Source: a virus
Taxonomy: Duplodnaviria; Caudoviricetes
Length of the DNA: 64,000 nt
Virus record (IMG/VR): IMGVR_UViG_3300001528_000580
Coordinates: 32,001 to 96,000 of that record
Strand: one strand, 5' to 3'
Positions 32,755 to 41,181 of the stretch are shown here, one piece after another. Under the pieces are notes generated by a model. That model was not told the origin of the DNA and made no database searches. It saw nothing but the letters and a program-made list of their open reading frames with translations. The position numbers and the translations under genes were made by a program. Numbering within the stretch: position 1 is the stretch's first letter; every line of letters starts with the position of its first letter.

Positions 32755-33863
32755 AATATTATTACAGAAAGTTGAAATATACTTTCTGTTTTTGTTTTTA
32801 TTTTTATGCCGAATAGATAAATATTATTATCGATAATAATATCTATTTACTTATATTAACGGAGAATAATCAGGAGAGACAAATAAAAAATTGAAATTTC
32901 TTCGTTTTATAACTTGAAAAAAATATTAATTGTGATATAGTATATTACAACTAAATGAAAGGGATAACAATGAAATTTCTTCGGAAAATTACTTATAATT
33001 TCAAAAATGCAGTTATTGCTATTTTTATGATTCTTATTACTTTTTTGTTTGTGTATGTGAAATACTGGTGGACAAAAGAAGCACTTTCCGATATTGCAGG
33101 AAGAGAAGTAAAAACAACAACGGTTCTTTGGTCAATATTTAAGGAGAATTGAAAATGAAGAAAGAAGCAATTGTTGATTTTAACAAATTGTCTAAATGGG
33201 GATTGATTGTTGAAATTAACAAAAAAGTTCTTCATCCGCTCGGTTTAGCTTTGAGCTATAATGACAATGGAAAATCAAAGGGAGCGATTATTTCCGATGA
33301 TTATATATGGGAATATGGCAAAGATACAGTGAAAAAACATAAAAAGTTGAAAAAGAAATTTGCCAAAAACAGAAAGAAAATTTTAGGTTCACTTTTGAAG
33401 AAAAAGAAAAAGTAAATCAAATATTAAGCAAGTTGAAATATACTTGTTTTTTTATTTTTATCATATCATTGTTTAACTAATATATTGTTATCGATAATAA
33501 TATTTCTCTTCATAATAAAAAATGTATTTTTTATATTTTTGCTCTTGACTTTTTACAAAATGAGATTATATTAATAAGTAGAAATAAAAGTTATGTCCAT
33601 GATAAAATAAAGGTTTTTTATATGGATAAAGAAACTATGAAAAAAGTAAATGAACTTTTGTTATCTGCTCCGAAACCTACAATTAAAGAACTTGCCGAAC
33701 TTGTTATTTGGGCAGGTTATAAACTTCCTTCGCCTAAAATTAAAGAAGGTCAGTTTGATTTTAAGAAAAAAAAGAGAAATAGAAAGATTATCGCTTGAAT
33801 TTCTTTGTTTTTGTGCTATATTATAATTAGTAACAGAAAAACAACCACTAAAGGAGTTTAATC

Positions 33864-38843: not shown

Positions 38844-38951
38844 GAATTTTAAGGCAAGCTAAAAACTTGCCTTTTTTATTTTTGTTTTTCTGTTAATATT
38901 ATACATATTATTATCGATAATTATATATAACAATTATTCCAGAATAAAGAC

Positions 38952-39130
38952 AAAAAAATTGGTGTAACACGGTAAAGCAAATGAAAGGGAAAAGAATTAC
39001 TTTACCTAGCAGACAACCACGAACTGCTGTTACACCAATAAAAAACCAGAGGAGTGGTTTTTTAGCGCCCCGACCGCATCGATTTTTAAACAACAATATA
39101 CAGAAAGGAGAAGTCATTTTTTCTGTTACT
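38952..39130 (-). ncRNA. putative structured small RNA, antisense to the array direction
   Basis: Minus-strand promoter TTGACT(39164-39159)-16-TATATT(39142-39137); four hairpins; terminal 11-bp stem followed by poly-T. Confidence 0.6.
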
Positions 39131-39893
39131 AATTATAATATAGCACGAAAAAAATGAAAGTCAAGTATTTTTTAAAAAATATTTTTATTTTTTTTGTATC
39201 TATTGGACTTGATTTTTCATTTTTTGGTGTTATACTAATAATAGAGAAACAACCATATTGAAGGGGAATAAGAAAAATGGGAAGCAATAATACTATTGAA
39301 AGCAAAATAGAGCACCTTGCAAGCGATTTAAGGCAGGTCTTTTTGTCCATGAAAGTAATACATGGAAAAGAAGTTGAACGACCTTGTAAATCAATGCAGG
39401 GACAAAATAATCGAATATGCCAAAACGATTAAAGGCACTGATGAATTTAAATTCATTGATAACCTTATGTTTGAAATGTTTATTGAATATTCCAAAATGT
39501 AAAGAATTTTTTGCTATTACTACTTGAAATTTCATTTTTTTGTGATATAGTAATAATAGAAAATAAAGGAAAGCATATGAAAACAATTCTGCTGATTCCA
39601 AGTATGGTAATAATTAATACTACTGCTATTGCAGTTATGCCAAAGTTGTTTTCTTATTTTGGTTATAATAATTGGCAAGCAGGACTTTTTTGTGTTGGGC
39701 TTATTGCTGTTATTATTGGAATGGTTTTCTTGATGGTAATGCACGATGACAGAAAGGGAAGAATATGAAAATTATTCAAAGAAAAGCGTATTGTGCTTTC
39801 TGTGGCAAAAAAGTTTTGCTCCCTTTGGAACGGTGGAAAATCCTTAAACAAGGTGGTATGTTTGTTTGCAAACGTTGCAGTTAAGGAGTAATT

Positions 39894-41162: not shown

Positions 41163-41181
41163 AATTTCTACTTATGTAGAT
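41163..41181 (+). CRISPR. solitary Cas12a (type V-A)-like repeat AATTTCTACTTATGTAGAT
   Basis: Matches the mature Cas12a handle AAUUUCUACU-NNN-GUAGAU. Confidence 0.75.

Follow-up and report, generated by a model that had tools for sequence, protein, structure and literature searches.

A small RNA gene lies in reverse orientation within an array of short genes in the genome of an uncultured jumbo phage, and its product is probably a trans-acting antisense RNA, similar in kind to the phage RNA c4, that damps translation of the early-like genes around it. Sequence, conservation, complementarity and motif enrichment at this locus point to two invariant loops, displayed on a predicted three-way junction, which match two sequence tags in the leaders of the array. 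The RNA would be transcribed from its own reverse promoter and would pair with these leaders in vivo; the effect would be repression, probably with a delay relative to the array itself.

An array of short genes in a jumbo phage genome

The window analysed here is a 64-kb stretch of DNA (bases 32001-96000 of the phage record), and coordinates below are those of this window unless stated otherwise. The record is a complete virus genome of 440,868 bp with direct terminal repeats, 25% GC and the standard code. The phage encodes 33 tRNAs and a tmRNA, along with a DnaE-type polymerase, NrdD and a Cas12a of its own. A tRNA with the anticodon CUA, resembling an amber suppressor, is located at G000:C1:256421-256495; the genome otherwise reads as code 11. 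Neither a sigma70_r2 domain nor Hfq was found in the phage genome.

28080..52053 (~24 kb), plus strand: array of short, separately promoted genes, with leaders that carry AACCA and/or AAAGGG tags

Typical units of the array run in the order terminator, 12-bp palindrome, promoter with a 16-bp spacer, leader and ORF, and judged from this architecture the array is probably early-like. Two promoter classes, both with a 16-bp spacer, can be distinguished by the -10 element: TATAGT is present in 25 of 39 array promoters, mostly with an upstream palindrome, and TATATT in 89 of 94 promoters far from the array (p 6e-15). Because TATATT also occurs in 8 of the 39 array-region promoters, the argument for timing is a soft one. 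In one relative, an RNase III gene (L088:19127-19762) adjoins the end of the array and could act on RNA duplexes.

The reverse promoter and boundaries of the RNA gene

A preliminary description of this DNA reported a single backwards promoter in the interior of the array, driving about 180 nt that end in a stem and poly-U, and both observations are borne out. With a position weight matrix trained on the phage genome (16-bp spacer; 6 matches scoring >11 in a shuffled genome), the reverse promoter is the sole minus-strand match between 27955 and 53585. It scores 28.6, ranking 32 of 168, and is identical at 44 of 48 positions to the forward promoter at 33794. The predicted unit of 179 nt ends in a U7 tract.

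39137..39164, minus strand: RNA promoter, with -35 TTGACT, 16-bp spacer and TG-extended -10 TATATT
38952..39130, minus strand: predicted non-coding RNA of 179 nt, with ends inferred from the promoter (+1 near 39130) and the U-tract
38952..38958, minus strand: U7 tract directly after P1, the predicted terminator; U6-U8 in relatives, where the sequence beyond diverges
38910..38921, no strand assigned: array palindrome ATTATCGATAAT, 293 bp from the next forward promoter as against the usual 44-92

The promoter of the RNA is of the TATATT (non-array) class and lacks the upstream palindrome, which fits a separate expression class without proving one. The palindrome-to-promoter distance of 293 bp suggests that an array unit received the RNA cassette as an insertion. 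No second copy of the RNA was found in the phage genome.

Predicted fold of the RNA

The 179-nt unit folds better than shuffled sequences (z -5.4). For the 3' domain alone (39039-38952) the value is z -6.5, and the 5' half, at z -0.8, is no better than shuffles.

39064..39130, minus strand: plastic 5' region containing an anti-SD hairpin, a G/U-rich stretch and a GC-rich segment; alternative hairpin, probability ~0.08
39113-39107, minus strand: anti-SD CUUCUCC in the alternative first hairpin, within the 5' region
39098-39088, minus strand: G/U-rich stretch complementary to AAACAAC-type leader starts, within the 5' region
39040..39063, minus strand: A6/U6-flanked hairpin with loop CUCCUC (39054-39049)
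38958..39039, minus strand: conserved three-way junction, with P1 (39039-39029 paired with 38968-38958), P2 (39027-39009) and P3 (39006-38971)
39013..39023, minus strand: loop 3, which is complementary to the leader motif ACAACCAC / AACCAC (at about -19 to -28 relative to AUG); invariant in all homologues
38981..38996, minus strand: loop 4, which is complementary to ribosome-binding sites of the AAAGGGA type (at about -12 to -16 relative to AUG); core invariant

The 3' half is predicted to form a three-way junction, not two free hairpins, and in this model the junction is likely to be the active domain. Four hairpin loops had been described previously. Three of these (CUCCUC, UUCGUGGUUGU and the U/C-rich loop 4) are indeed unpaired in the predicted ensemble, whereas the first hairpin, with CUUCUCC, reaches a pairing probability of only ~8%. 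The description of two of the loops as anti-SD loops fares worse: neither survives as a loop in a second clade of relatives, and neither matches the 6-mers enriched in the array. A model of four equivalent antisense loops was rejected on these grounds, since the conserved, array-specific part consists of two loops on the 3' three-way junction. Loop 3 does contain the exact complement of ACAACCAC, as the preliminary description had stated for one loop, and the match reported at 32953 is real but extends over 12 nt rather than 11.

The GC-rich segment that precedes the second hairpin (39064-39082) is partly conserved in both clades and is able to pair with the CUCC element. It may sequester the anti-SD sequence instead of displaying it.

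Conservation among related phages

Loci of relatives were fetched from ENA and Logan assemblies through their neighbouring proteins, and a model of the 3' domain was applied to them. The domain is retained, always reversed, in 22 of 22 related-phage loci that cover the site; these represent two clades only and are thus not 22 independent cases. The more distant contigs L125-L132 do not extend far enough to include the locus. Between the clades, identity is 94% in the 3' domain, 60% in the 5' half and ~70% in the rest of the array; loops 3 and 4 remain invariant in their cores while the stems vary conservatively and the array drifts. Changes within the 3' domain are located in stems, one bulge and one junction position. 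They comprise a compensatory exchange of G-C for A-U, two changes on one side of a pair that leave it paired, and the loss of one terminal pair, with 99% of cells paired in the alignment. Covariation in homologues had been proposed as a check, and the structural covariation is not significant on its own (121 of 500 shuffles as good).

The 5' half is more variable. The second clade keeps the stem of the CUCCUC hairpin but carries another loop on it, and its first hairpin differs in sequence; CUCCUU and UUGUUGUUU elements are found in both clades with their order swapped. Every relative retains the reverse promoter, and the substitutions in it, TTGACA for example, maintain the consensus. Further homologues were sought by pattern searches of viral contigs, viral protein scans and phage BLAST, none of which gave a true match, and a metagenome search for the loop pattern returned 62 matches, all due to chance, 7 of which were also run through the 3'-domain model. 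Taken from the comparison of the two clades, the locus appears to be a real, conserved non-coding gene.

Strand and coding potential

Several features favour the minus strand as the functional one, namely the promoter, the U-tract, the better fold (-26.8 kcal/mol, compared with -19.5 kcal/mol for the plus strand) and substitutions that give G-U pairs on the minus strand only. The sole minus-strand Cas12a handle of the array loci also lies inside the RNA gene, in the predicted sense of the RNA.

Functions of the plus strand or of an encoded protein have to be weighed against this assignment. The plus strand might act as a decoy that shows AACCAC and AAAGGGA in sense and titrates a leader-binding protein, or the locus might be a mere DNA inverted repeat or terminator built from inverted leader pieces; the plus strand does fold (z -3.1 to -3.9) and reads like leader motifs. 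However, it has no promoter of its own and a terminator stands just upstream at 38851-38873, the G-U-type substitutions are confined to the other strand, the motif order is the reverse of that in leaders so that a simple inversion does not fit, and the conserved reverse promoter would be left unexplained. We consider a plus-strand function improbable. Coding is next to impossible as an explanation. A 68-aa minus-strand ORF (39117-38911) and a 58-aa plus-strand ORF are both open in this window, and either might have been the gene. Comparison largely refutes this: an early stop ends the 68-aa frame in L012, a frameshift disrupts it in L017, and the second clade lacks it and has the 58-aa frame cut to 26 codons. 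For these ORFs there is no ribosome-binding site, no Pfam match and no entry in the protein collection, and the 68-aa ORF runs through the predicted terminator. Both were rejected as the gene, and the broken frames in relatives speak against the concern, raised at the outset, that the 68-aa ORF is translated instead of an RNA being made.

Leader tags and predicted targets

The leaders of the array differ from others in the genome in the short motifs that they carry. AACCA is present in 15 of 34 array leaders compared with 4 of 91 other leaders (p 4e-7), and AAAGGGA in 10 of 34 compared with 3 of 91 (p 1e-4); ordinary AAGGA, in contrast, is rarer in the array (8/34 against 52/91). When k-mers were ranked by enrichment in array leaders relative to 514 other upstream regions, the top 6-mer was AACCAC (tied with ACCACA), the complement of loop 3, and the top 7-mer was AAAGGGA, the complement of loop 4. 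Shuffled loops performed as well in 86 of 2000 cases for loop 3 (4%) and 104 of 2000 for loop 4 (5%), and intergenic windows in 29 of 10708 (0.3%) and 82 of 10024 (0.8%), respectively. For the two anti-SD hairpins no enriched k-mer was matched, with 1365 and 482 of 2000 shuffles as good, and the energy preference of their loops for array leaders is small.

Pairing was also assessed from hybridisation and opening energies. Strong predicted pairing was found for 22 of 33 array leaders and 10 of 91 others (p 3e-9), at thresholds chosen after earlier threshold-free rank tests (3e-5 and 2e-6), and none of 40 loop-shuffled scaffolds reached the observed difference between array and other leaders. 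Most single loop-leader pairings are short (6-10 bp). Both tags occur in upstream-downstream order in 7 of 33 leaders, while 8 have only the AACCAC-type tag and 5 only the AAAGGGA-type tag; the order of the loops in the RNA is not colinear-antiparallel to that of the tags. Loop 4 is predicted to bind AAAGGGAA at -11.7 kcal/mol compared with -7.9 kcal/mol for AAAGGAG, whereas a typical 16S tail, assumed here and possibly not that of the host, prefers AAAGGAG over AAAGGGAA. In the second clade, leaders keep AACCA in 8/15 and 8/17 cases despite gene turnover.

28080, 32914, 33795, 34947, 36433, 41817, 42813, 43384, 49623, 50445, plus strand: example promoters of the predicted regulon (~22 of 33 leaders)
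39209..39279, plus strand: divergent forward promoter and leader of a 79-aa gene, the strongest predicted target (loop 4 -16.9, loop 3 -7.5 kcal/mol)

The copy of the 79-aa gene in this genome (39277-39503) carries a frameshift; the gene is intact in L015, L016 and L085-L097. In L017-L021 it is interrupted and its ribosome-binding site is also deleted. The RNA stays intact where this neighbour is frameshifted or interrupted, with an unchanged 3' domain in L017-L021. The interruption is an insertion of ~400 bp (L017:7418-7815, L018:5450-5850), whose end hairpins we take to be IS200/IS605-like.

A more distant phage contig (L125), with different promoter motifs, has AATGAAAGG leaders at 190-216, 1315-1335 and 1680-1703, one of which is a 13-nt perfect complement of loop 4.

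Cas12a handles at the locus and leads to the host

In three relatives (L085, L089 and L093) loop 4 carries an inserted Cas12a crRNA handle that has the orientation of the RNA; other handles at array loci are on the plus strand. This insertion makes the RNA's own 3' strand a spacer, and the uninserted allele is preceded by TTTC. Alleles at the loop 4 target vary at spacer position 6.

L085:9665-9683 (minus), L085:4034, L089:10057, L015:15203, L092:4432, L095:1575: solitary handles in relatives

Solitary Cas12a handles are polymorphic for presence or absence between relatives at 41163, 41323, 54801, 56658 and 56707 of the window. The 20-23 nt that follow handles match handle-free alleles in relatives, and among 12 distinct handle-spacer units with such a match, 9 have TT at -3,-2 of the target, consistent with a TTN PAM (binomial p 3e-6). 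Some handles occupy the target locus itself and take away the PAM of their owner; others share one expression site with different spacers. From these patterns, the solitary handles look like a guide for allele-specific warfare among kin, or a homing-like one. Virus-borne mini-arrays against competitors are known (PMC6858448), as are single-repeat Cas12a guides (bioRxiv 10.1101/2024.10.29.618823); in a brief literature search, in-place insertion of a handle that removes the owner's PAM was not found described.

The phage Cas12a (1186 aa; G000:C1:227292-231850; L113, L129) is adjacent to an array of ~13 spacers; the handle stem in its repeat is a variant (UCUAA/UUAGA), unlike that of the solitary canonical handles. 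Because the stems differ, the effector for the solitary handles may be a Cas12a of the host, and the two may be orthogonal systems. Spacers of canonical Cas12a arrays gave no match to the phage, and none of five candidate genomes was convincingly matched by the phage's own array. In a distant relative that shares the SprT / winged-helix synteny, a prepilin-type DUF1559-like gene is present (L131:2179-2904); DUF1559 is absent from the present phage genome. The family is typical of Planctomycetes-Verrucomicrobia-Lentisphaerae, and the gene provides a weak lead to the host phylum.

Proposed mechanism and alternatives

In the mechanism that we favour, RNA polymerase would transcribe the RNA from its non-array-class promoter, and the stable 3' three-way junction would display two single-stranded loops. 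Loop 3 would pair with the C/A-rich leader tag AACCAC, which is probably a translation enhancer, and loop 4 with the variant ribosome-binding site AAAGGG, a sequence that offers Watson-Crick pairs to loop 4 and a G-U wobble to the 16S tail. Since loop 4 reads AAAGGG with Watson-Crick pairs, we propose that ordinary AAGGAG messages would be largely spared. The loops would kiss the tag and the variant site, singly or together, and such pairing would prevent 30S loading and probably speed decay. As the stable RNA accumulates, it would shut off ~20 independent transcription units with a delay, and the corresponding genes of a co-infecting relative could be silenced as well. The earlier proposal of one multi-loop antisense RNA acting on many leaders thus keeps comparative and statistical support, with two loops in place of four and with the anti-SD elements confined to the plastic 5' half. 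Both loops are invariant in the two clades found, so loop-target co-variation gives no signal either way.

Alternatives that accept the RNA and its pairing differ in the sign of the effect or in the identity of the targets. Complementarity alone is sign-neutral and fits either outcome, and the RNA might instead activate or stabilise the array messages, by protecting their 5' ends or by recruiting ribosomes or a phage factor; yet it is the ribosome-binding site itself (-12 to -16) that loop 4 covers. Pairing of an sRNA over this site inhibits initiation, and activation seems unlikely. If the RNA were an antitoxin-like regulator dedicated to the divergent 79-aa gene, following the logic of type I toxin-antitoxin pairs and with all other matches as by-products, this would account for the rank of that leader as the best predicted target and for the linkage of gene and RNA in nearly all loci. 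Retention of the RNA is not, however, coupled to an intact neighbouring candidate toxin gene, as the breaks in the 79-aa gene described above demonstrate, the second-clade 79-aa leader matches loop 4 poorly, and array-wide enrichment of the tags would go unexplained, which leaves this explanation very unlikely. Foreign messages could also be the main targets of the same pairing, be they host mRNAs whose ribosome-binding sites are of the UGAAAGG type or, for superinfection exclusion, the early transcripts of other phages. The perfect loop 4 complement in L125, the anti-SD element in the 5' half of both clades, the apparent use of guide RNAs by these phages against close relatives, and the role of c4 in superinfection immunity (PMC12197685) all lend it some weight. 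Nevertheless, the tags matched by the two loops are enriched in the array of the phage itself, and because a phage that aimed only at others should lose its own tags, which these leaders keep, exclusively foreign targeting is disfavoured; we regard it as a rather small possibility.

Antisense damping of the phage's own array may be part of a broader arrangement, which we put forward tentatively and which is somewhat doubtful as a whole. Here, ~20 early units would be marked by a private C/A-rich enhancer and a wobble Shine-Dalgarno sequence, read perfectly only by one two-loop RNA of a different promoter class that switches the whole set off, as an RNA counterpart of T4 RegB. In some relatives, the Cas12a handle in loop 4 would turn the RNA gene into a weapon against the uninserted allele of kin, the gene being suited to this because it is constrained and would be expressed. 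The design is compact, with two invariant loops, two quantified tags and a single-base rule for Shine-Dalgarno discrimination, and if true it would provide a natural template for orthogonal multi-gene translational control.

Comparison with known systems

At the sequence level the RNA has the features of a trans-encoded antisense sRNA: its own promoter and terminator, a non-coding sequence, a conserved structure, and conserved, accessible seeds predicted to be complementary to the translation-initiation regions of a set of genes. A scan against Rfam gave nothing above noise.

The closest parallel is c4 of phages P1 and P7, in which the element b' occludes a ribosome-binding site and a' binds an upstream specificity site (PMC5320573). 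Like c4 (Rfam RF01695; GenBank AF234172), the present RNA is encoded by a phage and has a three-stem junction with two short single-stranded antisense elements, as supported by prediction and limited comparative evidence. In a check for an RNase P GGW site, a GGU was located within the 5' arm of the P1 stem, which extends 3 bp beyond it, and the span from GGU to ACCA in the 3' domain is 77 nt, the same as in mature c4. The differences are considerable. In c4, b' precedes a', an order colinear-antiparallel to a and b in the target, a' is in the junction and there is a tetraloop hairpin, whereas here the loop for the upstream tag comes first and both elements are hairpin loops. c4 lies in the icd-ant leader and targets its own icd-ant message; the present RNA is a stand-alone reverse gene between unrelated short ORFs, with its own reverse promoter and ~20 separate transcription units as predicted targets. 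The RF01695 covariance model gave no match at its gathering score, nor at E<=10 in the region or genome, and global alignment to P1 c4 is weak (17 of 1000 shuffles as good). Membership of the C4 family was rejected, given the lack of a model match, the opposite element order, and the different display and locus.

Bacterial RNAs offer further parallels. GcvB uses a G/U-rich element to silence C/A-rich (ACA) translation enhancers upstream of the SD in many mRNAs (PMC3879156), and loop 3 would similarly address a C/A-rich tag upstream of the ribosome-binding site. GcvB is host-encoded and Hfq-dependent with a linear seed; here a phage without an Hfq gene of its own encodes an RNA that displays its seeds in loops and has a second, anti-RBS loop. 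For S. aureus RNAIII and RsaA, two reports (PMC2837412, PMC3961350) describe C-rich hairpin loops that contact SD regions and a second site in several mRNAs by loop-loop interaction. These bacterial regulators have generic anti-SD loops, while the conserved loop here prefers a variant ribosome-binding site private to one class of genes. RNAs of the Cuckoo/CcsR type consist of repeated hairpins, each with a conserved CCUCC-type loop. The present RNA differs from them in having no Rfam match and anti-SD loops that are not conserved.

Early-gene shut-off in large phages is known mainly for protein factors, and a limited literature search found no description of a phage RNA acting through dedicated leader tags to repress an entire class of early genes. 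In T4, RegB is a protein nuclease that cuts GGAG, so that a class of early mRNAs marked by an RBS tag is shut off post-transcriptionally. The array described here resembles that system in having an RBS-tagged, probably early class that would be switched off, with the difference that the reader of the tag would be an RNA.
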